Source: Alphaproteobacteria bacterium (GTDB lineage Bacteria; Pseudomonadota; Alphaproteobacteria; UBA828). From it: a stretch of 64,000 bases of DNA. The stretch is taken from NCBI GenBank assembly GCA_022820945.1, contig JAJEEP010000165.1, positions 12,442 through 76,441 of the forward strand. The letters run 5' to 3'. The notes beneath the pieces were generated by a model that had not been told where the DNA came from, did no database searches, and saw nothing but the letters and a program-made list of their open reading frames with translations. Shown one piece after another: positions 26,424 through 56,957 of this stretch. A program made the position numbers and the translations under genes. The stretch's first letter is position 1, and every line of letters begins with the position of its first letter.

Positions 26424-27137
26424 TTAGGGCGCGGGCCGGGCCCCGAAGATTGCGGTGCCGATCCTGACGTGGGTGGCGCCGAGCGCGATCGCGGTCCGGT
26501 AATCGGCCGACATACCCATGCTGAGACGTTCGAGCCCGTGGCGCGCGGCGAGTTCCCGCAGCAGCGTGAAGTGGGGGGCAGGGTCCTCGGCGGCGGGAGG
26601 GAGGCACATGAGCCCGGCCACCGGCAGCATCAGGTCGTCTCGGCACTGCGCGAGCAGCGCTTCGAGGTCATCCGGCAACACGCCGGCCTTCTGCGGCTCG
26701 GCGCCTGTGTTGATCTGGACGAAGCAGTCCGGGCGCTTGCCCTGACGATCCATCTCGCGGGCCAGCGCCACAGCCAGCTTCGGCCGGTCGACGGCGTGGA
26801 TGGCGTCGGCGACCGCCACGGCGTCACGCGCTTTGTTGGTCTGCAGCGCGCCGATGTAGTGCAGCACCGCGCTAGGCCATTCGGCGCGGAGCGCCTGCCA
26901 CTTCCGGCTTGCTTCCTGCACTCTGTTCTCGCCGAAAGTCGTGTGACCGGCGGCGAGCGCGGGCAGAATCCGGCTTGCGGGGTGTCCCTTGGAGACCGCG
27001 ATCAGCGTAATCTCGCTCGCATCGCGCCCGGCGTGCCCCGCCGCGTCCTGGACCTCGGCCTTGACGGCGGCCAGATTGGCCGCGACATCGACGGACGGTG
27101 GGCCGTCTTGGGCGGGAGCAGGAGATGCGTGCGCCAT
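26424..27137 (-). CDS. yggS: YggS-family pyridoxal-phosphate homeostasis protein
   Basis: Motifs LIAVSKGHP, FGENRVQEA, HYIGALQTNK and MGMSADY are typical of YggS/PROSC. Confidence 0.85.
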   Translation of the reverse strand: MAHASPAPAQDGPPSVDVAANLAAVKAEVQDAAGHAGRDASEITLIAVSKGHPASRILPALAAGHTTFGENRVQEASRKWQALRAEWPSAVLHYIGALQTNKARDAVAVADAIHAVDRPKLAVALAREMDRQGKRPDCFVQINTGAEPQKAGVLPDDLEALLAQCRDDLMLPVAGLMCLPPAAEDPAPHFTLLRELAARHGLERLSMGMSADYRTAIALGATHVRIGTAIFGARPAP

Positions 27138-27150
27138 GGAAACCTAGGTA

Positions 27151-27792
27151 ATGCGAGCGACGGGAACGCTAGCAGAGGCGGCGGCGAGCCTCAAACGAGC
27201 GGCGGGGAGCACGCTGCCGGCACTTGTGCTCATGACCGACGAGGCGCGGCTCGCCGATCCGCTGCCGGCCGCCCGCGCGCTGCCGGCGGGGAGCGCCATC
27301 ATCCTCCGCCACTATGGCGTGCCGGAGCGCGCGGCGCTCGCCCGCCAACTGACCGCCATTGCGCGCCGGCGCGGGCTGGTCCTGCTGGTGGGAGAGGACC
27401 CCGTGCTCGCGCGGCGCGTCGGCGCGGGCGGGGTGCATCTGCCGGAGCGCGCGCTTCGCCGGGCGGGTGCGGTGCGCTGGCAGCGGGAGTGGCTGGTCAC
27501 CGCCGCCGTCCACTCTCACGCGGCGCTGAGCACGGCTGCAGCGTGCGGCGCGGACGCGGCCCTGCTGTCCCCGGTCTTTGCCACACCGAGCCATCGGGAT
27601 GTCCGCGCCCTCGGGCTTCAGCGCTTCGCGGCGCTCGCGCAGGCGAGCCCGATTCCGGTCTATGCCCTCGGTGGCATCGACCGCACCCGCGCGAATTTGC
27701 TTCGAGGCAGCGGCGCCGTCGGCATCGCTGGCATCGGCGGGCTTGTCCCGCGGGCATCGAACGACCCCCGACATGGGAGGTGCGGAACGTGA
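27151..27792 (+). CDS. Thiamine-phosphate synthase family protein (ThiE-like)
   Basis: TIM-barrel ThiE-like pattern (LVLMTDE..., ILRHYG, GVHLPE, SPVFATPSH, VYALGGI). The start is uncertain. It lies head-to-head with yggS with only 13 nt between the start codons. Confidence 0.65.
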   Translation: MRATGTLAEAAASLKRAAGSTLPALVLMTDEARLADPLPAARALPAGSAIILRHYGVPERAALARQLTAIARRRGLVLLVGEDPVLARRVGAGGVHLPERALRRAGAVRWQREWLVTAAVHSHAALSTAAACGADAALLSPVFATPSHRDVRALGLQRFAALAQASPIPVYALGGIDRTRANLLRGSGAVGIAGIGGLVPRASNDPRHGRCGT

Positions 27793-33026: not shown

Positions 33027-33180
33027 GGCCGTGCTCCTATTGCCGCCGCTTTCGCTGGCCGGAGCCATGATTCCAAGTGAGCGAGAAGAACGCAACCGCC
33101 CGCAAACATGGCCTCCGATACGAAATTCGTAGTACCAGGGTCCGAGATTCGTAAAACTCGTTAATCGAATGCCACTCTGT

Positions 33181-33210
33181 TGACATTGTCGTTGAACGAG
33201 AGAGACTATC
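33181..33210 (+). promoter_or_regulatory. Candidate sigma-70-type promoter for the urt-like operon
   Basis: TTGACA at 33181-33186, then about 18 nt, then GACTAT, roughly 100 nt upstream of the binding-protein start in an AT-richer spacer. Confidence 0.25.
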
Positions 33211-33306: not shown

Positions 33307-34650
33307 ATGCGTGTCAACAGACGGACCATCCTTAAAGGGGCATTGGCGGGGACGGCCGGCGTCGCGGCCGGATTCCCCCACCTCTACGTCAAGGACTTCG
33401 GGCAGGCCTGGGGCGCGAAGCCCTGGATCTACGAGGACGAGCCCATCAAGGTCGGGCTCCTGTGGTCGCAGACCGGCAACCTCTCGGTCGTCGAGAATGA
33501 TTCGACCCAGGTTTCGCTCTACGCGATCGACGAAATCAACGCGGCGGGCGGCATCGCGGGCAAGCAGGTCGAGCCGGTGGTGGTCGACGCCAAGTCCGAC
33601 ATCAAGGTCTATTCGGAGAAGATCACGCAGCTCATTCTCCGCGACCGCGTGGTGTCGGTGCACGGCAGCTACACCTCGGCGAGCCGGCGTGCGGTCATGC
33701 CGATCGTGATGAAGTGGGATCATCTCTACTACTACCCGACCTGCTACGAGGGCCGGGAGTGCATGCAGAACATCATCAACACCGGGCCGCTGGCGAACCA
33801 GCACTCCTACGACCTGGTGCCGTTCATGGTGGAGAACTTCGGCCCCAAGACCTATCTGGTCGGCTCCAACTACATCTGGCCGAAGGAGTCTAACAAGAAC
33901 GTCAAGGTCTGGCTGGAGCGGGCCGGCGGCGAGGTGCTCGGCGAGGACTACATCCCCCTCGGCGGCTCCGAGTTCGCGCCGGTCTTCAACAAGATCCGCC
34001 AGCAGCAGCCCGACTGGATCATGTCGACCGTGGTCGGCGACTCCGACATCGCGCTGCACCGGCAGTTCCTGCAGGAAGGCTTCAAGTCCGACAAGACGCC
34101 GATCGCATCGCTTACCACCGGTGAGATCGAGACCCGCGCCATGGGCAACGAGGCCGGCGCCGGTCACTTCCTGTCCGCGCCTTACTTCCAGACCCTGCAG
34201 AACCCGACGAACGAGAAGTTCGTGGAGGGTTATCTCTCAAGCCAGTATGGCGGCGGCGGCGTTACCCACTACAACATGGAAGAGACCTATCTCGGGATCT
34301 ACGTGTGGAAGAAGGGTGTCGAGCGGGCGCTCGAGGAGACGGGCGGCGACTGGGAAGCCATCACGCCGCGCATGATCCGCGACGTCAGCGGCAACTGGCG
34401 CGACCAAGGCCCGGTGGGGCTGACCGACGAGGAAAGCCCGGAAGGCAAGGTCTGGATCGATCCGGACAATTTCAACATCTGGCTGAAGCCCAAGATCGGC
34501 CAATGCGGTGCGGACGGACAGTTCACCATCGTGCGCCAGGCCGACGAGCACGTCGGGCCGGATCCCTACGCGATCTATCCCGAGCGCGGCGTCTGCAAGG
34601 CCGACGGCCTGCACCGGCCGGACGGTACGGTGCAGAAGGACGTTCTGTAA
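33307..34650 (+). CDS. urtA: Urea/short-chain-amide ABC transporter substrate-binding protein (UrtA/FmdD/AmiC family), Tat-type signal
   Basis: ATG at 33307 with AAGGGAGA upstream. Twin-arginine-like leader (MRVNRRTILKGALAGTAGVAAG). UrtA-like core (IKVGLLWSQTGNLS..., IDEINAAGGIAGKQVEPVVVD, SYTSASRRAVMP, YYYPTCYEG). Confidence 0.8.
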   Translation: MRVNRRTILKGALAGTAGVAAGFPHLYVKDFGQAWGAKPWIYEDEPIKVGLLWSQTGNLSVVENDSTQVSLYAIDEINAAGGIAGKQVEPVVVDAKSDIKVYSEKITQLILRDRVVSVHGSYTSASRRAVMPIVMKWDHLYYYPTCYEGRECMQNIINTGPLANQHSYDLVPFMVENFGPKTYLVGSNYIWPKESNKNVKVWLERAGGEVLGEDYIPLGGSEFAPVFNKIRQQQPDWIMSTVVGDSDIALHRQFLQEGFKSDKTPIASLTTGEIETRAMGNEAGAGHFLSAPYFQTLQNPTNEKFVEGYLSSQYGGGGVTHYNMEETYLGIYVWKKGVERALEETGGDWEAITPRMIRDVSGNWRDQGPVGLTDEESPEGKVWIDPDNFNIWLKPKIGQCGADGQFTIVRQADEHVGPDPYAIYPERGVCKADGLHRPDGTVQKDVL

Positions 34651-34675
34651 GAGACCTGTTCGATCTGGTAGGTTC

Positions 34676-34702
34676 GGGGCGGAGAGACATTCTCTCCGCC
34701 CC
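34676..34702 (+). terminator. Perfect 11-bp stem-loop between the binding-protein and permease genes (intercistronic attenuator/stabiliser)
   Basis: GGGGCGGAGAG-ACATT-CTCTCCGCCCC. No U-tract follows it. Confidence 0.4.
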
Positions 34703-34795
34703 GCCGCTCCCCGACAGGGGATGTTGGCAGGCTGATCTCTCGGACACGCACCCGAGAGGCAGGACCGCAACAGGGAGAGAGGCGAGACTCTATTC

Positions 34796-35698
34796 ATGAG
34801 CGTCCACGATTTCTGGACACCCTTCGCCGCAGAACCGTTCATTAATGCGCTGATTATCGGGCTCAGCCTGGCCAGCATCTGGCTGGTCGCGGCGCTCGGG
34901 CTCACCATCATTTACGGCACCATGGGCGTGATCAACATGGCCCATGGCGAGTTCATCATGCTGGGGGCCTACTTCACCTGGATGATGCAATATTTCGGCG
35001 GGCTCCCCTGGCTGCTCTGCCTGCCAATCTCCTTCGTGCTCGTCGGCTTCATCGGATGGCTGGTCGAACGAGGGCTCATACGACACTTGTACGACCGACC
35101 ATTGGACACGCTCCTCGCGACATGGGGCGTATCCTTGGTCTTCATCCAGAGCATCCGGCTGATCTTCGGCGGCGAGCCGCAGTACGTCGCCGTGCCCGAG
35201 TGGCTGACCAGCGTGATGACGATCGACTTCGTGCATGTGCCCTGGATCAGGATCTTCATCTTCTTCGCGGCGCTGGCGCTGGTCGCCATCACCTGGGCGA
35301 TCCTGTTCAAGACCAACATCGGCATCCAGGTCCGCGCGGTGATGCAGAACCCGCAGATGGCGGCGTCCTTCGGCATCAATTCGAGCCGGGTCTACGGCCT
35401 CACCTTCGCCTACGGGGCCGGCCTCGCCGGTATCTCGGGCTCCATGTTCGCGGGCCTGAAGACGATCTTCCCGGATATGGGGCTGGGCTACGTGGTCGAG
35501 GCCTTCCTGGTGGTGGTGACGGGCGGCGGCGAGCTCTTCGGCAGCCTGGCGACCGCCGGCATCATGGGCGAGATGTTCTCGATCTTCTCCTACTTCACGA
35601 ACGACACCTTCGCCCGCTTCGTGCTGTTCATCCTGATCGTGATCTTCCTGCGCTTCCGCCCGCAGGGGATCTTCGCGCCCAGCATGGCGCGGCGCTAG
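34796..35698 (+). CDS. urtB: Urea-type ABC transporter permease UrtB
   Basis: UrtB-like N-terminus (GLSLASIWLVAALGLTIIYGTMGVINMAHGEFIMLGAY). Confidence 0.85.
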   Translation: MSVHDFWTPFAAEPFINALIIGLSLASIWLVAALGLTIIYGTMGVINMAHGEFIMLGAYFTWMMQYFGGLPWLLCLPISFVLVGFIGWLVERGLIRHLYDRPLDTLLATWGVSLVFIQSIRLIFGGEPQYVAVPEWLTSVMTIDFVHVPWIRIFIFFAALALVAITWAILFKTNIGIQVRAVMQNPQMAASFGINSSRVYGLTFAYGAGLAGISGSMFAGLKTIFPDMGLGYVVEAFLVVVTGGGELFGSLATAGIMGEMFSIFSYFTNDTFARFVLFILIVIFLRFRPQGIFAPSMARR

Positions 35699-35704
35699 GG
35701 CAGG

Positions 35705-36856
35705 GTGAACGTCATGCTGCTGGAAAGATTGAAACTGGAGCCGACGTCGCAGCGGCACAACCTCTACCACGACAAGCGCGCGCAGTGGGCGATGTACGTT
35801 GTGGCCTTCGGCGCGCTCGCCACGATCCCGCTGTTCATGGGCGACGACCCGTTCGCGCTCAACCAGTTCGCGCGCTACGGCGTCTTCGGCATGCTGGCAC
35901 TTTCGGTGAGCCTGGTGTGGGGCTTTGGCGGTATCCTCAGCCTGGGCCAGGGCATCGCCTTCGGCATGGCGGCCTACGGCATGGGCGCCACCATGCAGAT
36001 GCAGTACCAGGATCCGGAATACGACCCGATCCCGAGCTTCATGCTGACCAACGAGCTCGAGAAGCTGCCAACGGTCTGGGAGCCGTTCTGGCATACCGAG
36101 GTCGGGCTGATCCTGGCGCTCGGAATCCCGACGCTCTTCTTCGTCATCTTCGGCATTCTGATGTTCCAGGCGCGCCTGGCCGGCGCGTTCGTCGCCATCA
36201 TGACGCTCGCCATGCTCGGCGCCTGGTACAACATGGCCTACGACATGCAGCCGTTCACGGCGGGCTTCAACGGCATCTCCCCGCCCAACTCGTTCCAGGC
36301 CTTCGGAGTCGACGTCGATCCTTACAGCAGCATGATCTACTGGGTGGCGCTCGGTGTCCTGGCCGCGCTGACGCTCGGGACCAAGGCACTGCTCCAGAGC
36401 AAATTCGGCACCATAATTCAGGCGATACGCGACGACCCCGAACGAGCGCGCTTCCTCGGCTACAACGTCGCCTTCTATCAGGTGACGGTGTTCACGATCT
36501 CCGGCCTCATCGCCGCGATCGCGGGAATCGTCTGGGTGATGATCGTCCAGTACGTCTCGCCGACCTCGCTCGAGATCTTCTTCAGCATCACGATGGTGAT
36601 CTGGGCCGCCGTCGGCGGCAGGCTCTCGCTGTTCGGCGCGATCTTCGGCGCCATCTTCATCAACACGATCCAGAGCTACGTGGGCGACGAGTTCCAGGCC
36701 GCCTGGTTCGTGATCCTCGGCACGATCTTCATCGTCGTCGTGCGCTTCCTGCCGAAGGGCATTGCCGGGCTGTTCGAGATGATCGTGGGCCTCGTTCCCT
36801 ATCGCGGCCGTGCCCCGACGCAGCCGACCCTCGACCCCCGGCGGGCGGCGGACTAG
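35705..36856 (+). CDS. urtC: Urea-type ABC transporter permease UrtC
   Basis: 383-aa polytopic permease, 6 nt after urtB, with a LivM/UrtC-type pattern. Start is the GTG at 35705 or the ATG at 35714. Confidence 0.85.
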   Translation: MNVMLLERLKLEPTSQRHNLYHDKRAQWAMYVVAFGALATIPLFMGDDPFALNQFARYGVFGMLALSVSLVWGFGGILSLGQGIAFGMAAYGMGATMQMQYQDPEYDPIPSFMLTNELEKLPTVWEPFWHTEVGLILALGIPTLFFVIFGILMFQARLAGAFVAIMTLAMLGAWYNMAYDMQPFTAGFNGISPPNSFQAFGVDVDPYSSMIYWVALGVLAALTLGTKALLQSKFGTIIQAIRDDPERARFLGYNVAFYQVTVFTISGLIAAIAGIVWVMIVQYVSPTSLEIFFSITMVIWAAVGGRLSLFGAIFGAIFINTIQSYVGDEFQAAWFVILGTIFIVVVRFLPKGIAGLFEMIVGLVPYRGRAPTQPTLDPRRAAD

Positions 36857-36868
36857 GAGGGCGCGGAC

Positions 36869-37624
36869 GTGAGCGCGATTCTCGAAGTCACGGACGTGAC
36901 CAAGGCCTACGACGAGTACAAGGTCGTCGACAGCTTCAGCTTTCAGGTCGAACAGGGCGAGCTGCGCTGCCTGCTCGGGCCGAACGGTGCCGGCAAGACG
37001 ACGACGATGGACCTGATCACCGGCCGCCAGAAGGTGACGGGGGGCAAGATCATGTTCCAGGGCCGGGACATCACCGGCCTGCCGGAGCACCGGATCGTGA
37101 AGCACGGGATCGGCCGCAAGTTCCAGGTGCCTGCGGTGTTCAGGGATCTCACCGTACGCGAGAACCTGCAGGTCGCGAACACGCATACCACCAATCCCTT
37201 TTTCAACATGATCACGTTCCGCCAGCGGGCGGGGCGCGAGCGCCTGAATGAGATCGTGGAGCTGGTGGGACTGGAGGATCGGCTGGACGAGATCGGCGGC
37301 AATCTCAGCCACGGCGAGACCCAGTGGCTCGAGATCGGCATGGTGCTCACCCAGGACCCCAAGCTCCTGCTCATGGACGAGCCCACAGCCGGCATGACCG
37401 AGCAGGAGACCCACCGCACCTCCGAAATCTTCAACCGGCTGAAGGGCACGCACACGCTGGTCGTGGTCGAGCACGACATGGCCTTCGTGCGCGAGATTGC
37501 CGACATCATCACGCTCATGCATCTGGGCAAGACCCTGGCGGAGGGCCCCATGCACGAGGTGGAGAACGATCCGAAGGTGCGCGAGGTCTACCTCGGTGCC
37601 GAGGGCATCAGCGATGCTGCTTGA
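36869..37624 (+). CDS. urtD: Urea-type ABC transporter ATP-binding protein UrtD
   Basis: Motifs GPNGAGKTTTMDLITG and GIGRKFQVPAVF (characteristic of UrtD), LSHGETQWLE, LLMDEPT. Confidence 0.88.
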   Translation: MSAILEVTDVTKAYDEYKVVDSFSFQVEQGELRCLLGPNGAGKTTTMDLITGRQKVTGGKIMFQGRDITGLPEHRIVKHGIGRKFQVPAVFRDLTVRENLQVANTHTTNPFFNMITFRQRAGRERLNEIVELVGLEDRLDEIGGNLSHGETQWLEIGMVLTQDPKLLLMDEPTAGMTEQETHRTSEIFNRLKGTHTLVVVEHDMAFVREIADIITLMHLGKTLAEGPMHEVENDPKVREVYLGAEGISDAA

Positions 37625-38312
37625 GCTGGAAGACGTCACCTCCTTCTACGGCAAGACGCCGATTCTCCAGAACATAAGCCTGGGTGTCTCCCACGGCCAC
37701 TGCATGGCGGTGCTGGGGCGGAACGGCGTCGGCAAGACGACGCTGATGCGCACCATCATGGGGCTGACCACGCAGATGACAGGCACGCTCAGGATCGCCG
37801 GCGAAGACGCGAGCAACATGCCCACGCATCAGCGCTCCGAGATCGGCATCGGTTACATCCCGCAGGGGCGCGGCATCCTGCCCAAGTTCTCGGTGCGCGA
37901 GAACATCCTGCTCGGAACCTTCGCGCGCAACGACAAGCGGCGGAAGATTCCCGACATGTGCCTCGATCTCTTCCCCTATCTCGCCGAGAACCTGGACAAG
38001 CGGGCGGGGCAGCTCTCTGGCGGTCAACAGCAGCAGCTCGCGATCTCGCGCGCGCTCGCGACCGATCCCAAGATACTGCTGCTCGACGAGCCGACGGAAG
38101 GCATCCAGCCCAACATCGTGCAGGAGCTCGAAGCCACGATCATGCGGCTCAACACCGAGGTCGGGCTCACGCTCGTGCTCACGGAGCAGCACATCAAGGT
38201 GGCGCGCGAGCTTTCGCACGAGTTCGTCATCATGGATAACGGTCTGATCGTCGAGGGTGGCCCCATCGACGGATTGACCGACGAGGTCGTCGACAAGTAC
38301 CTGACGATCTAG
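37614..38312 (+). CDS. urtE: Urea-type ABC transporter ATP-binding protein UrtE
   Basis: The internal ATG at 37614 overlaps the urtD end by 11 nt. Motifs GRNGVGKTTLMRTIMG, IGYIPQGRGILP, LSGGQQQQLAI, LLLDEPT. Confidence 0.88.
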   Translation: MLLELEDVTSFYGKTPILQNISLGVSHGHCMAVLGRNGVGKTTLMRTIMGLTTQMTGTLRIAGEDASNMPTHQRSEIGIGYIPQGRGILPKFSVRENILLGTFARNDKRRKIPDMCLDLFPYLAENLDKRAGQLSGGQQQQLAISRALATDPKILLLDEPTEGIQPNIVQELEATIMRLNTEVGLTLVLTEQHIKVARELSHEFVIMDNGLIVEGGPIDGLTDEVVDKYLTI

Positions 38313-38354
38313 GCATCAGAGGGCCGAGGCAGTAGACGTGAGGGGAGACCCAGA

Positions 38355-38795
38355 ATGATCCGTATTCCGCCGAAAGGCAGTCCCGATCGGGATCGTCTCA
38401 TCGAGGAGCACAAGGCGTGCATCGAGTCCATGAAGGGCGTCGCCGGTTGCTCGATCCTGCGCTGCGCGACACCGGGCGACACCACCGAGATCAGCGGCGG
38501 CATTCACGAGGATTTCCAGCTCAACCGCGTGCTGCTGCGGATGCGGGCCCAGCCGGCGAAGGGCAAGCTCGTGGTGGTCTGCACCAAGATCGAGAAGGAA
38601 TGGCGCATCGCGCGCTGCTCCGGCATCCGGGGCGTGCCGCCGGAGTTCGTCTCCGACAAGGTGTACGACAACGAGCAGGACCCCCAGCACGACATCTTCC
38701 TGATGCGGCTCGACGAGTTCCCGGAGACCGACGGCTTCCCCGAGCACTTCCATCAGGGTTGGAAGCGCCGGGACGACAACTGGGCCGCGTCCTAG
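38355..38795 (+). CDS. Hypothetical 146-aa protein; candidate small (alpha) subunit of the downstream dimethylformamidase-like enzyme
   Basis: GGGGAGA Shine-Dalgarno upstream. The position immediately upstream of the large-subunit homologue and the ~16 kDa size match the known alpha/beta gene arrangement. The segment LLRMRAQPAKGKLVVVCTKIEKEWRIAR...HDIFLMRL resembles what I recall of DmfA1, but this is unverified. Confidence 0.5.
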   Translation: MIRIPPKGSPDRDRLIEEHKACIESMKGVAGCSILRCATPGDTTEISGGIHEDFQLNRVLLRMRAQPAKGKLVVVCTKIEKEWRIARCSGIRGVPPEFVSDKVYDNEQDPQHDIFLMRLDEFPETDGFPEHFHQGWKRRDDNWAAS

Positions 38796-38894
38796 GGCTC
38801 AGGTCCGGGCGCGCATTCCGGGATTCCACGCGGCAACAGATCAGGGCGCGCGAGCGGCTGAACAGGCCCGCGCGATCAAGGGGAGAGACACCCG

Positions 38895-41300
38895 ATGGCT
38901 TGGATGAGACTGACGGGATATGCGGACAAGTTCGGCGTCCATCCCGGCGACACGATCCGCTTCTATGTGAACTGCGACGGGCCGAAGAGCTACGACGCCC
39001 AGCTCGTGAAGATGATCAACGGCGACACCAACCCGCGCGGTCCGGGCCTGATCGAGCGCAAGCGCCGGGCATCGCTTAACGGCTCCTACAAGGGCCGCCG
39101 TCAGGTCATCCACAGCGGCTCCTACGGCTGCGTGGAGGACAACGCGCAGCTCCGGGTGCAGAGCTTCACGCTGCAGTGTTGGGTCTGGCCGACGACGCCC
39201 AAGACTCATCCGAAGTACTGGAAGCACGGCGCCCAGGGTCTGGTCACCAAGTGGCACAGGAACAAGGGCTATGGCCTCTTCATCAACGAGGACGGTTGCG
39301 CCGAGCTCCGCATCAATGGCAAGAAGGTCACGACCGGCGCGCCGCTGCGCGATCACGCCTGGCACTTCCTCGCCGCGACATACAACGCCGAGACGGGGCA
39401 GGCGATCCTCTATCATGAGCCGCAGGTGGTCTACGCCCTCGACCCGACGATCAGGCCCGCGAGGGACAAGATCGAAGGGCCGGTGAGGCATGACGCGAGC
39501 CCGGCGGTGATCGCCGGCTACACCGGCGCGCACAGCGACGATCCCACGGCGCAATCGTCGGTGCCGGCGGGCATCGTCATCAACGGTCACTACAACGGGA
39601 AGATCGACAGCCCCCGGATCTGCAATCGCGCGCTGAGCCGGGAAGAGATCGAGACCATGAAGCTCGGCGCCCAGCGCGGCATGACCGAGCGGCGCAACTC
39701 CGGCCCGACCGGCGCGCTCTCCGAGACCATCGTCGCTGCCTGGGACTTCTCCGACGGCATCAACACCATCGTCGGCAAGGACCACGGGCCCTATCTGCTC
39801 GATGCGCAGATCGTCAACTGCCCGACGAGGGCCATGACCGGCCACAACTTCTCGGGCAACAACTTCGACTGGAAGCATGCGCCGCAAGAGTATGGCGCGA
39901 TCCACTTCCACGACGACGACGTGGACGATGCGCGCTGGGAGGTCGACTTCGAGTGGACCGTGCCCGCGAACTACGAGAGCGATTCCTACTGCGTGAAGCT
40001 CACCACGGACGAGGGCGACGAAGACTACATTCCGTTCTTCGTCGTGCCGCGCCCCGGCGAGGAGCAGGCCAAGATCGCGGTGATGATGCCGACGATCAGC
40101 TACATGGCCTACGCCAACGAGCATCTCGCCAACAACGCGGGCGGGGCGGAGCTGCTGGTCTACCGCGTGCCGATCATGCAGCACCAGAACATGTTCCTGG
40201 CCGAGCACCGCGAGTACGGTGGCTCGATCTACGACACCCACACTGACGGCAGCGGCCTTTGCCTCTCGTCGAGGCTGCGGCCGATTCTCAGCATCCGGCC
40301 GCAGTACGACCACTTCCTGATGCAGGCGCCGTGGCAATACCCGGCCGACCTGCACCTGATCTACTGGCTCAACCAGCTGGGCTACAAGTACGACGTCATC
40401 ACCGACGAGGACGTGAACTACGACGGCCTCGCGCGGCTGGAGAACTACAACGTCGTGATCACGGGCTCGCATCCCGAGCACAACTCCGGGCCGCAGCTCG
40501 ACGCGATTCACGATTACACCCAGCGTGGCGGCCGGTTCATGTACATGGGCGCGGACGGCTTCTACTGGATTCACTCGTACCATCCGGCCTACGACCATCT
40601 GGGCCGCGGCATCATCACCGAGATGCGCCGCTGCGAGTCCGGCATCCGGACCTGGCGGGCCGACCCCGGCGAGTACTATCACCAGTCCACCGGCGAGCTC
40701 GGCGGCATGTGGCGCTATCGCGGGCGCTACCTGCACTCGATCGCCGGAACCGGCATGTCGTCGGAAGGCTTCGATATTTCCAGCTACTACTCGCGCACGC
40801 CGGAGAGTAACGATCCGCGCGTCTCGTGGGCCTACGAGGGCATCGACTACGACGAGAAGATCGGCAACTTCGGCCTGGTCGGCGGCGGTGCTGCCGGCAC
40901 GGAGCTCGATATCGTCGATACCCTGCTCGGCTCGCCGCCGCACACGCTGATCACCGCGACCTCGGCGGGCCGCCATACCGAGGGCTACCTGCTGGTGATG
41001 GAGGACTTCGGCTTCAACCAGCAGGGCCTGGACGGCACCCAGCACCCGCGCGTGCGCTCGGACATCGCCTATCACGAGACGCCCAACGGCGGCGCGTGCT
41101 TCGCGTTCAGCTCGATCGCCTTCTGCGGGTCGCTACCGTGGAACAACGGAGATCCCGAGAAGAACAACATCTCGCGGCTGGTGAAGAACGTGCTCGACCG
41201 CTTCTCGCAGGACGGGCCGCTGCCGCCGCCGCCGCGCAGCGCAATCAAGCATCGTGGCCGCGCAGATTACGACCCGCCGCTCAACAAGAAGCGGAAGTAG
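38895..41300 (+). CDS. N,N-dimethylformamidase large (beta) subunit family protein (LamG-like N-terminal region plus C-terminal amidase domain)
   Basis: 801 aa with AAGGGGAGAG Shine-Dalgarno upstream. Family-typical blocks run along the whole length: GDTIRFYV..., INGDTNPRGPG, HYNGKIDSPRI, WDFSDGI, QYGAIHFHDDDVDDARWEVDFEWTVP, EDYIPFFVVPRPG, ISYMAYANEH, PADLHLIYWLNQLGYKYDVITDED, VVITGSHPEH, GTGMSSEGFD, GLVGGGAAGTELD, NGGACFAFSSIAFCGSL. Confidence 0.8.
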   Translation: MAWMRLTGYADKFGVHPGDTIRFYVNCDGPKSYDAQLVKMINGDTNPRGPGLIERKRRASLNGSYKGRRQVIHSGSYGCVEDNAQLRVQSFTLQCWVWPTTPKTHPKYWKHGAQGLVTKWHRNKGYGLFINEDGCAELRINGKKVTTGAPLRDHAWHFLAATYNAETGQAILYHEPQVVYALDPTIRPARDKIEGPVRHDASPAVIAGYTGAHSDDPTAQSSVPAGIVINGHYNGKIDSPRICNRALSREEIETMKLGAQRGMTERRNSGPTGALSETIVAAWDFSDGINTIVGKDHGPYLLDAQIVNCPTRAMTGHNFSGNNFDWKHAPQEYGAIHFHDDDVDDARWEVDFEWTVPANYESDSYCVKLTTDEGDEDYIPFFVVPRPGEEQAKIAVMMPTISYMAYANEHLANNAGGAELLVYRVPIMQHQNMFLAEHREYGGSIYDTHTDGSGLCLSSRLRPILSIRPQYDHFLMQAPWQYPADLHLIYWLNQLGYKYDVITDEDVNYDGLARLENYNVVITGSHPEHNSGPQLDAIHDYTQRGGRFMYMGADGFYWIHSYHPAYDHLGRGIITEMRRCESGIRTWRADPGEYYHQSTGELGGMWRYRGRYLHSIAGTGMSSEGFDISSYYSRTPESNDPRVSWAYEGIDYDEKIGNFGLVGGGAAGTELDIVDTLLGSPPHTLITATSAGRHTEGYLLVMEDFGFNQQGLDGTQHPRVRSDIAYHETPNGGACFAFSSIAFCGSLPWNNGDPEKNNISRLVKNVLDRFSQDGPLPPPPRSAIKHRGRADYDPPLNKKRK

Positions 41301-41372
41301 GGGTTCGCCGCAGGCACGGACGGGGCGGGTGGTGCACCCGCCCCATCCCGGCGCGGCCGAGGGTCTGGCCCG

Positions 41373-42494
41373 ATGACGATGCGGCCCGATCTCGACTACG
41401 TGGACGAGGGTGTCGATCTTCAGGATCCCGCCCTCTACAGGCCGTCGCGCGGGCGCTTCGGCACGGCCCGAATCCTCACGCCCATCGCCTACCGCTCCAA
41501 GGTCTTCGCCGACCTGGAGGACGAGAAGATCTGGACCCGGAGCTGGGTCTGTATCGGCTCGCAGCACGACATTCCCAATGTCGGCGACCTGCTGCCCTAT
41601 ACGGTCGGCAACCACGGCGTTCACGTGCAGCGCGGCGATGACGGGCTGATCGGGCGCTACAACTTGGCGCAGCACGGCGGTTGCCGCTTCGTGCCGGCGC
41701 AGTGTCAGACCGGCTCCAAGACCAGGTGCTCGTTCACCTCCTGCGGCTACAGCCGCGATCGCGGGGTGATCGCTGCCGACGAGCTCGGCGACAACACGCC
41801 GACCATGCGCCAGTATCTCGGCTACCGGCCCGAGCGCCTGCTGCCGGTGACGGTGGAGAGCGAGGGGCCGTTCCTCTTCGTCAATCTGGATCCCGAGGCT
41901 GCACCGCTCGCCGACCGGCTCGATGGCGTTGCGGAGGCCCTTGCTCTCGAAGAGGCGGCAGCGTGGGAGAATGCCGAGAGCTTCTGGGCCGAGTACGAGG
42001 CGAACTGGAAGCTGCTCGGCCGCGCGCTGCTCCGCTCTCTCGCGCCAAAGGCCAAGGCGGCGAAGAAGGCGGGCGGCGATGCCATCGTGCTCCGGACAGG
42101 GGCAGATTTTTCGGGCGGGCCCGCGACGGTCTTCTGGCTCCTGCCCAACCTGATCCTGGTGTACGGGAAAGACCTCCTGGTGAGCATCGCGCTGCAGCCC
42201 ACCGCGCTGGAGGAAACACTAGCTCGGGTCAGGATCAGCGCGGCACGGCCGATCGAGGCCGCGCACGTCGAGGCGTTGCGTGCGGCGCTCGAACAGGCCG
42301 GTGGCGAGGCGGCGGCTCAGCAGGAGGAGCTGGTGCGGTTCGGGACGCCTTCCAGGCCGCAGACGCGCCTCGACGCGCTCCCGCTCGAAGAGGACCGCGC
42401 CGCCCACCTGCTCCAGGCCTACGTGATCGGGCGGGTGTTGAAGCGCCACGAGGTCCACCAGGCGGGCCCGCTCTACGTCGCCGCCGTGCGCTGA
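41373..42494 (+). CDS. Rieske-oxygenase alpha-subunit-like protein lacking canonical Rieske and mononuclear-iron ligands
   Basis: The N-terminal layout matches ring-hydroxylating oxygenase alpha subunits (WVCIGSQHDIPNVGDLLPYTVGNHGVHVQRGDDGLIGRYN...). The CxH...CxxH motif reads AQH...CSFT, with extra Cys at positions 104, 111 and 124. The ANWK block is not followed by the usual Asp/His ligands. Confidence 0.6.
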   Translation: MTMRPDLDYVDEGVDLQDPALYRPSRGRFGTARILTPIAYRSKVFADLEDEKIWTRSWVCIGSQHDIPNVGDLLPYTVGNHGVHVQRGDDGLIGRYNLAQHGGCRFVPAQCQTGSKTRCSFTSCGYSRDRGVIAADELGDNTPTMRQYLGYRPERLLPVTVESEGPFLFVNLDPEAAPLADRLDGVAEALALEEAAAWENAESFWAEYEANWKLLGRALLRSLAPKAKAAKKAGGDAIVLRTGADFSGGPATVFWLLPNLILVYGKDLLVSIALQPTALEETLARVRISAARPIEAAHVEALRAALEQAGGEAAAQQEELVRFGTPSRPQTRLDALPLEEDRAAHLLQAYVIGRVLKRHEVHQAGPLYVAAVR

Positions 42495-42799
42495 TGGTCT
42501 TCAGCGTCCAGCAGATCAAGTACGAGATCCTCGCCTACATCAAGGAGTGCGGCGGGGAGTTCGGCGACTATTACGTCGGGATCGCAGCGGACCCGAAGAG
42601 GACCCTCTTCGACGTTCACAAGGTGGACAAGGACGCCGACCCCTGGCTCTACAAGCAGGCGCTCACCTTCTACGCGGCGCAGACGGTCCAGGACTACTTC
42701 CTGCGGCGGCTGAAGGCCGACGGCGAGCCGGTGTATAACGGCGACGAAGATACGGACTGCGTCTATGTCTACAAGAAGAGCGAGCGGACCGTCCCGTAA
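42494..42799 (+). CDS. Small conserved-looking hypothetical protein (101 aa), translationally coupled to the upstream gene
   Basis: The ATG at 42494 shares one base with the upstream TGA (TGATG). Translation: MVFSVQQIKYEILAYIKECGGEFGDYYVGIAADPKRTLFDVHKV.... The YYVGI...R...H arrangement is weakly reminiscent of GIY-YIG-type folds. Confidence 0.5.
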   Translation: MVFSVQQIKYEILAYIKECGGEFGDYYVGIAADPKRTLFDVHKVDKDADPWLYKQALTFYAAQTVQDYFLRRLKADGEPVYNGDEDTDCVYVYKKSERTVP

Positions 42800-43526
42800 G
42801 GCGCGGCGTCCGGCGAAGCCTCGCGATGACGCAGCGCGGGCGGCGCTGGTCAGCCAAGAAGCCGCCGCCATCGAGGACGGGCGGCGCGCCTACATGGCCC
42901 GCGAGTTCGAGCGGGCGCGGGCGCTCTGGCTGCCGCTGGCCGAGGCCGGCAATGCCGAGGCGCAGGCCTGGGTGGGCTCGCTCTACGCCAACGGAGACGG
43001 CGTCGAGGCCGATGCGGCGGCGGCGTTCGCCTGGTACCTCAAGTCGGCCGAGGGCCGGAACGTGCTGGCCCAGAGCAACGTCGGCGCGATGTACGCCATG
43101 GGCAACGGCGTCGCCCAGGACATGGCGGAGGCGGTGCGCTGGCTGCGGCGCGCGGCCCGCGGCGGCGATGCCAACGCCCGCTTCAACCTCGGCGTGCTCT
43201 ACAGCCAGGGCAATGGCGTGCCGCAGAACCATACCCGCGCCGCCGAGTGGTACCGCAAGGCGGCGGAAACCGGGCACTACCAGTCCCAGGCCCGCCTCGG
43301 CCACATGTACCTGGCGGGCGAGGGCGTGAAGAGGGACCGCGTTCAGGCCTTCCTGTGGCTTTCGCTCGCCGCCCGGCACGGCATCGGCTCCGCCCTCACC
43401 GCTCTGGAGGCGGTGGTCAAGGAGATGTCGTCGGACGAGAAGGCGCAAGGCATGCGTCTCGTCGCCCAGTGGCGCGGCAAGGCCGCGAGCGGCGCCGACG
43501 TGCTCATCGACCCGGTGCCTGTGTAG
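42765..43526 (+). CDS. Sel1-repeat (TPR-like) protein
   Basis: At least five Sel1 units (AEAQAWVGSLYANGDGVEADAAAAFAWYLKSAE, VLAQSNVGAMYAMGNGVAQDMAEAVRWLRRAA, ...). The ATG at 42765 overlaps the previous gene by 35 nt. The alternative ATG at 42894 does not overlap. Confidence 0.8.
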   Translation: MSTRRASGPSRKARRPAKPRDDAARAALVSQEAAAIEDGRRAYMAREFERARALWLPLAEAGNAEAQAWVGSLYANGDGVEADAAAAFAWYLKSAEGRNVLAQSNVGAMYAMGNGVAQDMAEAVRWLRRAARGGDANARFNLGVLYSQGNGVPQNHTRAAEWYRKAAETGHYQSQARLGHMYLAGEGVKRDRVQAFLWLSLAARHGIGSALTALEAVVKEMSSDEKAQGMRLVAQWRGKAASGADVLIDPVPV

Positions 43527-43536
43527 GGAAGTATTC

Positions 43537-44025
43537 TCACCCGGCCGGCGCGGGTTGGGTGCATGCGAAGCGGTCGATCACCCCGGTCTTGTCGTTCACT
43601 TCGATTTCGAAGGACGCCTCAGTGAGCTCGCTCCAGAGGTCCGATTCCTCGGTCGGGCAAGCGTTGTGCGGCCCGATTTCGCCGGGACGCGCGGCTTCGC
43701 CGTGGCGCGCCGAGCGGATGCCGGGCGAGAAGAAGACCTCGACCTCGACCGCGCCCGTAGCGGCCCGCACGGTGTCGCCCACCTCCCAGCCGGCCGGCAG
43801 ATCGTGGGAGCGGTAATAGCTCTTGATCCGGCGCACAGTGTCCTCGGGATCGATGGGCTCTTCGGACCCGGACTCTGCGGCCTGTTGCTCCGTTCCTGTA
43901 CTTCCGCGACGCAACTGCTGACCGGTCTCGTAGACGATCACGAACAGCAGAAGAATTCCGACGATGATGCCGTAGCGAAGCCATCGCCGCTTCGTTGGCG
44001 CTCCGGTCTTGCGGCGTCGCCCCAC
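43537..44025 (-). CDS. Membrane-anchored hypothetical protein (162 aa)
   Basis: Basic N-terminus followed by one TM helix (WLRYGIIVGILLLFVIVY), then a soluble domain. I recognise no family. Confidence 0.5.
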   Translation of the reverse strand: MGRRRKTGAPTKRRWLRYGIIVGILLLFVIVYETGQQLRRGSTGTEQQAAESGSEEPIDPEDTVRRIKSYYRSHDLPAGWEVGDTVRAATGAVEVEVFFSPGIRSARHGEAARPGEIGPHNACPTEESDLWSELTEASFEIEVNDKTGVIDRFACTQPAPAG

Positions 44026-44101
44026 GATGTTTCCGTCGCTTTCGAGTAAGATCGCCGTCTCTCAGGCGCAGGATACCGGTCGCGGTCAGAGGAGTGAAAC
44101 G

Positions 44102-44377
44102 ATGCCCATCCCGCGGAACATTCAGGAGGAGCTCGAGAAGAGGGACGAGCTGATCCTGGCTCTGGAAATGATGGTCGTCGATCAGGCCTGCCGCCTGCTT
44201 GCCGCCGAGGCGGTGCTGCGCGAGCTCGTCCCGGCCAAGCGGAAGCCGTCGCAGGAGAAAATCGAGGCCCACATCACTGAGGCCGCCGAGCGCTTCCGCC
44301 AGCGCTTCGAGGGCGAAAGCGTCGCCGGGTTTACCGACCGGGCGAAGCGCGTCGCGGCCGAATTAGTTGGGCGTTAG
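44102..44377 (+). CDS. Small helical hypothetical protein (91 aa)
   Basis: Internal ATG at 44102 of track ORF 44009..44377 (MPIPRNIQEELEKRDELILALEMMVV...). Coiled-coil-like composition. Divergent from the 162-aa gene. Confidence 0.4.
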   Translation: MPIPRNIQEELEKRDELILALEMMVVDQACRLLAAEAVLRELVPAKRKPSQEKIEAHITEAAERFRQRFEGESVAGFTDRAKRVAAELVGR

Positions 44378-51097: not shown

Positions 51098-51108
51098 GGG
51101 AGAGAGCG

Positions 51109-52008
51109 ATGACCGAGGGATGCGTGTTCATCGGCGGCGAGTACGTGGCGCCCGAGGACGCCAGGATGTCGATCTTCGACGCAGGCTTCGTCTGGAGCGA
51201 TACCGTCTACGACGTGACCTCCACCTGGGCCGGCTGGTTCTTCATGCTGGACAAGCACCTGGAGCGCTTCGCGCGCTCCTGCGCAGGCTTCCGGCTGGAG
51301 AACCCCTACAGCGCCGACGAGATGCGCCGGATCCTCGCCGAATGCGTGGCGCGGACCGGGCTCGACAACTGCTACGTGAAGATCCAGCTCACCCGCGGCG
51401 TGATCCAGAGCCAGACCCGCGACCCGCGCCTCGGGTCGCCCCAATTCGTGGCCTACGCCACGCCCTACGCCTGGATCTGGGGCGAGGAGAAGTGCCGCAA
51501 CGGTGCTGCCCTCTATCTCAGCGGCGTGGAGCGGGTCTCGTCGAAGGCAATCGACGCCCGCTACAAGAACTACAACCGGGCGGACTTCGTGCAGGCCCGC
51601 TTTGAGGCCTACGACAACGACTGCGACGACGCGATCCTGGTGGGCGCCGACGGCTCGCTGACCGAAGGGCCGGGCTACAACATCTTCGTCGTCAAGGACG
51701 GCGCCGTGGCGACGCCCGAGACCAACGTGCTGGAGGGAATCACGCGGCGCGCGGTGGCCGAGCTCTGCGACGAGGAGCGGATTCCGTTCTCCCACCGCCG
51801 GGTGGGGCCGGAGGAGCTGGGCGCGGCGGACGAGCTGTTCGCGAGCACCACGGCCGGCGGCGTCATGCCGGTCGTGCGGCTCGGCGACAAGCCCGTCGGC
51901 AACGGCCACGCCGGGCTCCTCACCAGCCGCATCCAGTCCCGCTATTGGAGCAAGCGCGCAGACGGCTGGCACGGTACGCGGGTGGAGGACATTCGCGCCG
52001 CGGCCTAG
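51109..52008 (+). CDS. Class IV (branched-chain / D-amino-acid) aminotransferase family protein
   Basis: Internal ATG at 51109 of track ORF 49234..52008. Fold-type IV pattern (SIFDAGFVWSDTVYDV..., KNYNRADFVQA, EGPGYNIFVV, LEGITR). Confidence 0.85.
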   Translation: MTEGCVFIGGEYVAPEDARMSIFDAGFVWSDTVYDVTSTWAGWFFMLDKHLERFARSCAGFRLENPYSADEMRRILAECVARTGLDNCYVKIQLTRGVIQSQTRDPRLGSPQFVAYATPYAWIWGEEKCRNGAALYLSGVERVSSKAIDARYKNYNRADFVQARFEAYDNDCDDAILVGADGSLTEGPGYNIFVVKDGAVATPETNVLEGITRRAVAELCDEERIPFSHRRVGPEELGAADELFASTTAGGVMPVVRLGDKPVGNGHAGLLTSRIQSRYWSKRADGWHGTRVEDIRAAA

Positions 52009-52340
52009 GCGGGCCAGACTTAATCATTTCCCTCAGGCGCCGGGCGCGAACTCCGTTCGCTTGGCTTACGCGCCTAACGGCGCGGCGCGCAGTCGCGCGC
52101 TCCGGGCTGCCTCGCAGCCCGGCACGATACATGGCAAACGCTTCGTCCGTTGCCGGCAAGAGACCCTGGACCATGGTGCGGTGCACGGCGCGCTGCGGGC
52201 ACGCGATGATCGCGCCATGACCTGCAAGAGCAAACGGGCCGCGGCCGGCGGGATGAGCGTACGTGCCAGACTCCCGTTCCGCGCAGGACCTTTCAGGCCC
52301 GAACCGTCTTGGGCCGGAACGAGCCGCATCGGGAGACGCC

Positions 52341-52410
52341 GCCCTGGACCACCTTGAGCCGCCTTGGGCCACTTTGGGCCGCTTTGGGCCGGAGTAGGCC
52401 GGAATAGGCC
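52341..52410. repeat. Tandem 10-bp repeat, about 7 units (consensus close to GCYTTGGGCC) followed by a T-run
   Basis: The consecutive decamers are gccctggacc, accttgagcc, gccttgggcc, actttgggcc, gctttgggcc, ggagtaggcc and ggaataggcc, followed by gcgaattatttttt. They lie inside a 430-bp gap with no credible ORF. Confidence 0.6.
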
Positions 52411-56933: not shown

Positions 56934-56957
56934 GGGCGGGGCGAGGGCCGCCGCGCC

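Follow-up and report, generated by a model that had tools for sequence, protein, structure and literature searches.

A ten-gene module joining a Urt-type ABC importer to a dimethylformamidase-family amidase: a probable small-amide import-and-hydrolysis operon of Proteobacteria

The N,N-dimethylformamidase (DMFase) of Paracoccus sp. DMF, DmfA1A2 (6LVB; PMC7686228), is encoded by a gene for a small subunit followed by one for a large subunit with Laminin_G_3 and DMFA2_C domains. A mononuclear Fe(III) is bound by Y399, Y440, and E521, the residue H519 is essential, E657 is the probable base, N547 stabilizes the oxyanion, and F693 provides a constriction from the neighboring subunit; the N547A substitution abolishes activity (PMC7686228). 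The enzyme acts on N,N-dimethylformamide (DMF), N-methylformamide, N-ethylformamide, and formamide and is inactive on acetamide, dimethylacetamide, and urea (10.1101/2019.12.17.879908). According to its authors, the two subunits suffice for the recombinant enzyme, and no additional proteins are needed (PMC7686228; 10.1101/2019.12.17.879908). DMF itself has been described as man-made and not known in nature (10.1101/2019.12.17.879908). A precedent for a locus that combines an importer with an amidase is fmdCABDEF of Methylophilus methylotrophus (PMC10781810). Described here is a locus in a 64,000-nucleotide stretch of DNA from an alphaproteobacterium (contig JAJEEP010000165.1, positions 12,442 to 76,441; hereafter, the window), in which a Urt-type ATP-binding cassette (ABC) importer is joined to a DMFase-family amidase and three accessory proteins. 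We assign a probability of roughly 0.7 to the reading that this module is a small-amide, probably formamide-type, import-and-hydrolysis operon.

Like the dmf genes, the module displays the small-then-large order of subunit genes, the two domains of the large subunit, the Tyr-Tyr-Glu set of iron ligands, and the conserved equivalents of His519, Glu657, and Phe693. It differs in having an invariant Asp for Asn547, a small subunit that is barely recognizable by sequence, an attached ABC importer with three accessory genes, and a wide distribution in non-polluted habitats; its activity is predicted from sequence. To our knowledge, neither such an importer nor the three accessory genes occur in any characterized dmf locus. 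With fmdCABDEF the module shares a high-affinity Urt/Liv-type importer for tiny amides, a cytoplasmic formamide-cleaving enzyme, an occurrence in methylotrophs, and a TorF-family putative porin, which follows the module in 11 of the related loci compared below. In contrast, its hydrolase belongs to the DMFase iron-enzyme family rather than to the FmdA/AmdA acetamidase family, and an FmdB-type regulator is absent.

All coordinates given here are positions within the window, and labels such as L001 denote the loci of relatives in other genomes. An earlier note, made from the sequence alone, had delineated nine genes on one strand; their coordinates were reproduced exactly, as were the successive gaps of 145, 6, 12, -11, 42, 99, 72, and -1 nt. 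On the basis of their strong third-position GC bias (GC at third codon positions, GC3, of 0.86-0.92 with low GC at position 2), all nine open reading frames (ORFs) are real genes, including the ORF of 101 aa with its GC3 of 0.92. Nine is not the total, however, since a Sel1-repeat gene at 42765-43526 recurs with the other nine across relatives, and the unit thus comprises ten genes. We infer that these (33307-43526) constitute one operon with a single transcript. They are as follows.

33307..34650, + strand: periplasmic binding protein with a twin-arginine translocation (Tat)-type leader (Peripla_BP_5, E 2e-109; weak TAT_signal match)
34796..35698, + strand: ABC permease, UrtB type (TIGR03409, 319 bits versus a cut-off of 250; co-conserved in related loci)
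35705..36856, + strand: ABC permease, UrtC type (TIGR03408, 314 bits versus a cut-off of 296)
36869..37624, + strand: ABC ATPase, UrtD type (TIGR03411, 321.5 bits versus a cut-off of 304)
37614..38312, + strand: ABC ATPase, UrtE type (TIGR03410, 289.5 bits versus a cut-off of 285.8; ATG at 37614; 11-nt overlap with the urtD-type gene)
38355..38795, + strand: predicted small (alpha) subunit of a DMFase-family amidase, 146 aa (match to 6LVB_B; PF26354 DMF_alpha in orthologues)
38895..41300, + strand: predicted large (beta) subunit, mononuclear-iron amidohydrolase of the DMFase family, 801 aa (full-length alignment with 6LVB_A, 42% identity)
41373..42494, + strand: pseudo-oxygenase with the fold of a Rieske-oxygenase alpha subunit, 373 aa (AlphaFold2 model and Foldseek; residue conservation)
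42494..42799, + strand: 101-aa alpha/beta protein, translationally coupled (GC3 0.92; AlphaFold2 pLDDT 94)
42765..43526, + strand: Sel1-repeat protein, presumably cytoplasmic (Sel1 repeats, E 7e-36; no hydrophobic leader)

The start of the 101-aa gene overlaps the stop codon of the Rieske-like gene. Two other starts may need revision. The TIGR03408 match of the UrtC-type permease begins only at residue 49, which suggests that the true start codon may lie downstream of 35705. The start codon of the Sel1 gene at 42765 is likewise uncertain; its orthologues are 213-237 aa long, with the first 40 residues variable and conservation setting in near residue 42.

Relatives of the 801-aa protein were sought in a scan of one genome per species. 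This yielded 203, and the best 80 were employed for a locus comparison in which all window proteins were run by tblastn against the 80 species-level loci. In Pfam profile searches the 801-aa protein shows the DMFA2_C domain (E 5e-88) and Laminin_G_3 domains. Its residues 5-782 align with residues 5-765 of 6LVB_A (E 3e-158; 42% identity over 739 aligned positions), so that its assignment as a homologue of the DMFase large subunit passed an end-to-end check. The iron-ligand equivalents, Y406, Y446, and E528, are invariant in the window protein and its 80 orthologues, as are H526, E670, and F707, which correspond to DMFase H519, E657, and F693. The oxyanion residue is the one that departs from the DMFase pattern: D554 takes the place of Asn547 in 81 of 81 orthologues. 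An Asn is found at this position in N-acetyl-(R)-beta-phenylalanine acylase (8HUY, 8I5A), the only other relative of solved structure, and given the Asn in both enzymes Asp554 is a clade-specific change at a catalytic position. The acylase belongs to the same superfamily, aligns over the full length (E 4e-113), and has conserved metal ligands. Its relationship is more remote than that of DMFase, its deposited structure comprises no small subunit, and the bulky compound on which it acts cannot be reconciled with the tiny AmiC-like pocket of the importer described below. Variants in the enzyme pocket were considered as markers of substrate classes and rejected, as they merely track phylogenetic subclades.

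For the 146-aa ORF, no family match was obtained in the local Pfam and NCBIfam libraries. Its sole match in the PDB is the DMFase small subunit, 6LVB_B, aligned in register but with weak similarity (E 0.057 for the single sequence and E 0.018 with a 21-sequence profile). Orthologues of the ORF carry a precomputed match to PF26354, DMF_alpha. Together these two matches indicate that the protein is a highly diverged small subunit of the DMFase type and that the two-subunit reading of the amidase, as proposed earlier, is right.

The importer resembles UrtABCDE (8HIC, 7S6E, 7S6F) in its five components and their order, and the UrtB- to UrtE-type proteins exceed the NCBIfam equivalog cut-offs, if only just. 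The binding protein, in contrast, lies far below the UrtA cut-off (314 versus 493 bits). The urea pocket of Prochlorococcus UrtA is formed by W120, S122, Y141, Q144, E146, Y190, N246, and S274, all strictly conserved among urea binders, and mutation of W120, S122, Q144, Y190, or N246 leads to a loss of urea binding (PMC10392092). As revealed by an alignment with UrtA structures, W120, Q144, and N246 are replaced by Y, C, and V in the window protein, whereas S122 and Y190 are kept. Its pocket as a whole consists of Y, S, Y, T, C, E, Y, W, V, and V together with an IASLTT motif, and it is invariant in 64-67 orthologues. It is identical to that of AmiC (1PEA) at Y83, S85, Y104, T106, Y150, the V-V pair, and the IASLTT motif, and the Glu is likewise shared; P107 is a Cys here and Y152 a Trp. 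AmiC, which binds acetamide, is the sensor of the Pseudomonas aeruginosa amidase operon, and AmiR is its antiterminator. Note that Q144 and N246, whose side chains serve the first urea nitrogen, are the residues replaced by Cys and Val, while the contacts for the carbonyl oxygen and one N-H are retained; from this the pocket looks like one for a tiny amide with one apolar side. The binding protein would thus belong with the short-chain-amide binders of the FmdD/AmiC type and not with the canonical UrtA proteins that bind urea. These substitutions toward AmiC strengthen the earlier proposal that the importer works for the amidase and not for urea metabolism. Compared with the amiEBCRS system of P. 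aeruginosa, with which it has the AmiC pocket residues in common, the window protein is exported and feeds a transporter instead of acting as a cytoplasmic regulator, and the window holds neither AmiR nor AmiE.

A periplasmic binding protein is encoded directly upstream of urease genes in Methyloversatilis sp. MC4-4 (L076, 15138-16313). It scores 519 bits on the UrtA model, above the cut-off of 493, and has Y, Y, and V at the positions of UrtA W120, Q144, and N246. Either it represents a second type of urea pocket, or the annotation of UrtA by hidden Markov models takes in proteins that do not bind urea.

The module is widely distributed and strikingly uniform. The best 80 of the 203 large-subunit relatives are 76-99% identical to the window protein and belong to Alpha-, Beta-, and Gammaproteobacteria. 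The carriers are uncultured Alphaproteobacteria and Rhodospirillales, Bradyrhizobium, Rhodopseudomonas, Afipia, Methylopila, Hansschlegelia, Ancylobacter, Xanthobacter, Hyphomicrobium, Methyloligella, Bosea, Chelatococcus, and Jiella, in addition to Methyloversatilis and other Betaproteobacteria, Stutzerimonas, and gammaproteobacterial metagenome-assembled genomes (MAGs). Many carriers are methylotrophs, rhizobia and phototrophs are also among them, and many of the best 80 are marine and groundwater MAGs. The series of binding protein, two permeases, two ATPases, small ORF, large subunit, Rieske-like protein, and 101-aa protein, with Sel1, is kept in order and on one strand in almost all of the 80 loci that are sufficiently long, and the suggested joint inheritance of transporter and amidase is thereby borne out. 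Transporter genes precede the amidase genes in ∼65 of the 80 loci, in three classes. The Rieske-like gene adjoins the amidase in 79, and the 101-aa and Sel1 genes are co-conserved in 78 and 77, respectively, the two exchanging positions in some lineages so that the 101-aa gene sometimes stands after the Sel1 gene. Among the proteins, 55% of the positions of the large subunit are invariant across orthologues, and the small subunit (64-100% identity) has 38% of its positions invariant across the 80 orthologues. Identities across loci are about 55-99% for the transporter proteins, 37-92% for the Rieske-like protein, 33-98% for the 101-aa protein, and 44-96% for the Sel1 protein. The GC content of the module is 63-66%, versus 69-73% in its flanks and ∼68% for the window, and in Aminobacter lissarensis (L083) transposase and integrase genes stand on both sides of the module. 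These two features suggest that the whole ten-gene unit has spread laterally.

The first of the three accessory proteins is that of 373 aa. Profile searches of Pfam and NCBIfam gave only weak matches to GbcA and other ring-hydroxylating oxygenases, and no match to the Pfam Rieske family. The AlphaFold2 model (predicted local distance difference test score, pLDDT, of 83; predicted template modeling score, pTM, of 0.87) adopts the two-domain fold of a Rieske-oxygenase alpha subunit, and its top Foldseek matches are CntA (E 5e-16), the stachydrine demethylase Stc2 (1e-13), and other full-length alpha subunits. Like CntA, Stc2, and GbcA, which are monooxygenases of quaternary amines, the protein matches the alpha subunit across both domains and retains the NWK motif in its C-terminal domain. 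Unlike them, it has only two of the four Rieske ligands: the pattern C-x-H...C-x-x-H aligns to A99-Q-H101...C119-S-F-T122, with H101 and C119 kept. The residues H81, H84, H101, C104, C111, C119, C124, and D129 are invariant. The best-conserved segment is the invariant motif AQHGGCR-x2-P-x-QC-x-TG-x-KT-x-CS-x2-SCG-x-SRD, which spans H101, C104, C111, C119, and C124 and sets the protein apart from the known oxygenases through a new arrangement, H-x2-C-x6-C-x7-C-x4-C. The earlier description of a degenerate, ligand-less Rieske protein is therefore right as to degeneracy but not as to the ligands. The Cys-rich loop is where the model has low confidence, which is to be expected when such a site is modeled without its cofactor. 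No His or Asp is invariant after the NWK motif in the orthologues, and with it the 2-His-1-carboxylate catalytic iron site is lost. Furthermore, no reductase or ferredoxin gene is present in the module, either in the window or in five Pfam-labeled neighborhoods (L081, L083, L085, L086, and L088). With two of four ligands, no catalytic site, and no reductase nearby, the protein is not an oxygenase; with its Cys/His segment kept, it is a pseudo-oxygenase and probably still a binder of a metal or cluster.

The 101-aa protein has no Pfam or NCBIfam match. Its AlphaFold2 model (pLDDT 94) is a small alpha/beta domain for which no significant fold match was found in the PDB (best E 0.32). As judged from a large profile search, it belongs to a family of 832 representative clusters of unnamed proteins of ∼100 aa, one of 10 distant members of which matched GIY-YIG (PF01541) weakly, at 25 bits, which may serve as a lead. 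The Sel1 protein is presumably cytoplasmic, since it has no leader peptide. Given that the recombinant Paracoccus enzyme needs only its two subunits and that the accessory proteins evolve much faster than the enzyme, the three most likely have an auxiliary role in the assembly, metal delivery, stabilization, or regulation of the amidase, and would not carry out further catabolic steps. In seven loci (L085, L043, L049, L050, L060, L078, and L080) genes for a MoxR-type chaperone pair, CbbQ/NorQ-type AAA+ ATPase plus VWA protein, recur near the module, in L085 (1173-4164) together with an AmiE/F-type amidase. This pair could be insertion factors for the metal center of one of the amidases.

In other genomes the genes that adjoin the module give some indication of its purpose. 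The N-methylglutamate-pathway genes mgsABC, in some loci with gmaS or a homologue of mgdC resembling the sarcosine oxidase alpha subunit, adjoin it in the Bradyrhizobium/Rhodopseudomonas/Afipia group, as do mgsB, mgsC, and gmaS in a Rhodospirillaceae MAG. In a Burkholderiales MAG the series mgdCD-gmaS-mgsABC-folD runs into the amidase genes in the same direction and with tight spacing. Such adjacency makes the release of methylamine by the module plausible. The earlier note had found no dimethylamine- or formate-oxidizing gene beside the amidase of the window; in these genomes the module does have amine-oxidizing neighbors. A trio of GATase, GXGXG, and FMN proteins in L010 was considered as an N-methylglutamate synthase and rejected: a GltD-like subunit is present, identities are 30-40%, and the genes fit a split enzyme like glutamate synthase, with L052 uncertain in the same way. 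AmiE/F-type amidases of the nitrilase superfamily adjoin the module in six loci. Its regulators vary with the lineage but are amide-sensing in kind. In Methyloversatilis a cytoplasmic AmiC-like protein and AmiR (AmiR_N and ANTAR domains) are encoded divergently from the module; a hybrid histidine kinase is found in 26 loci, a LuxR-type response regulator in 21, and an XRE-cupin regulator in 20. A second UrtA/AmiC-like binding protein stands beside the kinase in ∼10 of the 26 loci and also occurs in L083 and L084.

Three noncoding features were recognized in and before the module.

33119..33209, + strand: candidate control region with two TACGAAWTTCGTA-like palindromes (33119-33153) and a GTTGACAT-N17-GAGACTATC promoter-like motif
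34664..34714, + strand: GC-rich hairpin in the gap between the binding-protein and permease genes (24-nt arms, 79% complementary, 3-nt loop; no T-run after it)
41318..41348, + strand: GC-rich hairpin in the gap between the amidase and accessory genes (14-nt arms, 93% complementary; no T-run after it)

The TTGACA of the promoter-like motif lies at 33180-33185 and is followed by a leader of ∼95 nt before the start codon of the binding-protein gene. Palindromes and motif are conserved upstream of this gene in the close relatives L001, L004, and L010, and the TTGACA motif alone is also conserved in L007, L008, L012, and L022. A control function would fit this arrangement. The palindromes are a candidate operator for a regulator, there being no regulator gene beside the module in the window. 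A generic scan for sigma-70 promoters and terminators did not call the motif upstream of 33307 and was uninformative. A sigma-54/NtrC promoter was rejected, there being no coding-strand match upstream of 33307 and only chance-level matches window-wide, and so was a riboswitch or other known RNA upstream of the operon, as an Rfam scan of the whole window returned only a tRNA at 54454. With no T-run after it, the first hairpin is likely an attenuating or stabilizing element within the operon, and the second may lower the expression of the accessory genes relative to that of the enzyme.

On the basis of these observations, the following mechanism can be put forward. The Tat-exported binding protein, with its AmiC/FmdD-like pocket, would capture a very small neutral amide in the periplasm, and the Urt-type ABC system would import it. 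In the cytoplasm the amide would be hydrolyzed by the two-subunit amidohydrolase of the DMFase family (146 aa and 801 aa), with two Tyr and one Glu as the ligands of its mononuclear iron, such that N-methylformamide would give formate and methylamine and/or formamide would give formate and ammonia. The Rieske-like, 101-aa, and Sel1 proteins would assist in assembly, metal loading, or control of the amidase. The substrate is most likely a small formamide, either N-methylformamide or formamide: formyl specificity is a trait of the family, and the conserved constricting Phe and the tiny AmiC-like pocket limit the size of the substrate. The linkage to the methylamine pathway argues for N-methylformamide, an acetamide isomer of nearly the same size, in at least some lineages, whereas the linkage to urease and AmiE/F-type genes argues for general nitrogen scavenging, which formamide fits equally well. 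If the small-amide reading holds, N-methylformamide as the physiological substrate is a tentative choice whose odds fall somewhat short of even; DMF is probably a fortuitous substrate. A broader proposal is held more tentatively still and must be called doubtful, namely that the module is an unrecognized but widespread route by which a natural N-methylated small amide (N-methylformamide or, alternatively, N-methylurea) is converted to methylamine and a one-carbon (C1) or nitrogen product by an Asp-variant enzyme of the DMFase family, dependent on a Rieske-derived metalloprotein, a Sel1 adaptor, and the 101-aa protein.

Several points weigh against the small-amide reading. The evidence for the substrate is entirely indirect. 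The AmiC-like pocket suggests a primary amide (R-CO-NH2), for which formamide or acetamide is a better fit than N-substituted formamides. The invariant Asp554 at the oxyanion position implies an active site not identical to that of DMFase, and the chemistry or the substrate may differ as a result. The role assigned to the accessory proteins is a guess, and these proteins are far less conserved than the enzyme (37-50% versus 76-80% identity). As to co-transcription, one hairpin is predicted behind the gene for the binding protein and another behind that for the large subunit. Both the N-methylglutamate and the urease context coincide with subclades of the enzyme and amount to only two or three independent juxtapositions each, while the subclade of the window itself (20 loci, uncultured Alphaproteobacteria) has neither, nor does it have the other metabolic neighbors, that is, the AmiE/F-type amidases and the TorF-family porin.

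Urea provides a further difficulty. In at least 12 loci, mostly of one enzyme subclade, a urease operon directly follows the module on the same strand, so that the transporter may also carry urea. These loci are from a gammaproteobacterial MAG, Methyloversatilis, Ancylobacter, Xanthobacter, Bosea, Jiella, Afipia, and Stutzerimonas. The urease gene order is unusual, ureE-F-(AB gamma/beta fusion)-C-G-D (L088, 11323-17666; L076, 16408-20780), and the operon seems to accompany a single subclade of the module; ahead of it, L088 has a gene for a 440-aa protein with no Pfam match. The pocket argument against urea is not conclusive either, given the similar non-canonical pocket in the urease-linked binding protein of L076, and non-canonical pockets may still accept urea. 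The module may therefore be linked to urea and nitrogen scavenging.

In one alternative, urea or N-methylurea is imported by a modified Urt system and cleaved by an iron-dependent, nickel-free enzyme, N-methylurea giving methylamine and carbamate. The permease and ATPase subunits do score above the urea-transporter equivalog cut-offs, the contacts for the carbonyl oxygen and one NH2 are kept (S122, Y190, and backbone), those for the second NH2 have become Cys and Val as would be expected for a methylated nitrogen, Asp554 could take a hydrogen bond from a substrate NH2, and both urease operons and methylamine-pathway genes recur beside the module. However, the characterized DMFase is inactive on urea, a nickel urease encoded in what appears to be the same operon speaks against a second, redundant one, and the pocket is that of the acetamide binder AmiC and not that of a UrtA changed in part. 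We also know of no established natural flux of methylurea, and overall we consider this explanation unlikely. Just as unlikely, in our estimation, is a dedicated xenobiotic system for the industrial solvent DMF, as the database annotation implies. It would account for the fact that the closest characterized relative is a DMFase with the same two-subunit layout, for the appearance of Hyphomicrobium, Methyloversatilis, Rhodopseudomonas, and Aminobacter in DMF enrichments or among genera that include DMF degraders, and for the module of Aminobacter lissarensis lying on an island flanked by transposase and integrase genes. Yet identities of 76-99% over three proteobacterial classes, the many marine and groundwater MAGs, and the housekeeping surroundings in the window argue for long purifying selection for a natural substrate and not for recruitment since DMF came into use. 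Proteins annotated as DmfA have, moreover, been detected in open-ocean metaproteomes, no dimethylamine-oxidizing genes are linked, the linked pathway handles monomethylamine, and an AmiC-like binding protein, by inference of high affinity, implies a scarce substrate that donates hydrogen bonds, whereas DMF has no N-H.

The near identity of the pocket to that of AmiC, and the AmiC/AmiR regulators that adjoin the module in Methyloversatilis, could instead be taken as signs of a general use of aliphatic amides such as acetamide and propionamide, with the module a functional analogue of amiE-amiC-amiR. Given that the Paracoccus DMFase is inactive on acetamide and dimethylacetamide and that its constricting F693 is conserved, this is very unlikely. 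The AmiE/F-type amidases beside the module in six loci, to which amides of this kind would already fall, suggest that the substrates of the two enzymes differ, and acetamide would leave the methylamine-pathway linkage unexplained. Finally, the transporter and the amidase might be unrelated neighbors, an ordinary urea importer beside an enzyme for an endogenous metabolite. A gap of 42 nt does separate the last ATPase gene from the small-subunit gene, amidase genes occur without the transporter in some loci (Methyloversatilis and two Hansschlegelia loci), the Urt-type genes of L037 are only 28-31% identical, and the ABC genes of L087 lie downstream. Such a coincidence is nevertheless extremely unlikely in view of a transporter that precedes the amidase genes in most loci of three classes, pocket residues that are not those of urea binders, and the presence, in the transporter-less loci, of an AmiC-type sensor or another Urt-like system nearby.

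In the window the module is set among housekeeping genes, with trpD, trpC-moaC, moeA, and a TPR/2-oxoglutarate (2OG)-oxygenase gene on one side and two small ORFs, a methyltransferase gene, ppiD, tpiA, secG, pyrG, and kdsA on the other. Consistent with the earlier note, no urease, urea carboxylase, allophanate hydrolase, or formamidase was found in Pfam and NCBIfam scans of most of its genes, the intervals 10973-12793, 26424-27792, and ∼51100-52400 lying outside the scans. The TPR/2OG-Fe(II)-oxygenase gene (PF13759; 31532-32905, - strand) stands immediately upstream of the binding-protein gene and does so in 15 loci of the window clade. In L086 (2802-3971, + strand) it still adjoins the module but is now co-directional, and that the two have stayed neighbors through a rearrangement may indicate a functional link. 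Close behind the Sel1 gene lie two small divergent ORFs, 43537-44061 (-) and 43976-44377 (+), with no Pfam match; the product of the former has one predicted membrane helix and that of the latter is helical. The pair is conserved along with the module in 26 loci, among them those of genera in which the large subunit is only 80-88% identical, and they may be lineage-specific members of it, perhaps with a regulator among them.

The soxBDAG-like genes (55629-61146) and two homocysteine-S-methyltransferase-domain genes (6758-8950) noted earlier are indeed present but do not provide the methylated-amine/C1 context proposed for the module. They lie 12 kb and at least 24 kb from it with unrelated genes between (housekeeping genes and a tRNA on the sox side), they are not near the module elsewhere, and as context they were rejected. 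None of the soxBDAG-like genes reaches its NCBIfam cut-off for sarcosine oxidase (soxA, for instance, has 875 versus 1164 and soxB 488 versus 529), and their product may be a heterotetrameric paralogue, an amine oxidase or dehydrogenase, instead of sarcosine oxidase itself. Upstream of them is a gene for a putative carboxylate, amino acid, or amine transporter (weak TIGR00950 match, 35 bits versus a cut-off of 230). The two methyltransferase-domain genes belong to a redox cluster at 320-9976 that also encodes a cytochrome P450, a Ferric_reduct-Rieske fusion (2756-4042), a Rieske-Glu_synthase (FMN) fusion (4835-6751), and a protein resembling fatty acid desaturases (8951-9976). This cluster may be a locus for methyl-group or betaine-type demethylation unrelated to the module.

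No description of the gene arrangement of the module was found in the literature searched, which covered DMFase, urea, the transporter, methylamine, formamidase, and the host genera. The parts are of known kinds, namely a Urt/FmdDEF-type importer, a DMFase-family enzyme, a Rieske fold, and Sel1 repeats; it is their combination that is undescribed in that literature, with a conservation this extreme, an Asp in place of the oxyanion Asn, a cryptic small subunit, and an obligatory accessory trio. One genome survey treated all DMFase homologues as 'putative DMF degraders' and recorded the small subunit in only 41 genomes (10.1101/2021.03.18.435917). 'DmfA' has also been reported in Pacific metaproteomes without further analysis (PMC9477243).

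How an elaborate iron amidase for man-made DMF came into being is an open question, and the module is a testable candidate for the ancestral natural function; it is probably the natural counterpart of the pollutant-degrading DMFase. It suggests that small amides may be an overlooked reserve of nitrogen and C1 units, and it suggests a new biological source of methylamine. The labels 'urea ABC transporter' and 'N,N-dimethylformamidase' are probably mis-assigned in hundreds of genomes and metaproteomes. The protein derived from a Rieske oxygenase would show how the fold of an enzyme can be taken over for a role without catalysis. If the proposed route for N-methylated amides is true, the solvent-degrading DMFases would be recent offshoots of an old natural pathway, and the 'DmfA' of ocean metaproteomes would be the sign of a methylamine source hidden in the nitrogen and C1 cycles of sea and soil. 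The natural role and the origin of the DMFases can be tested in cultured, genetically tractable carriers of the module.

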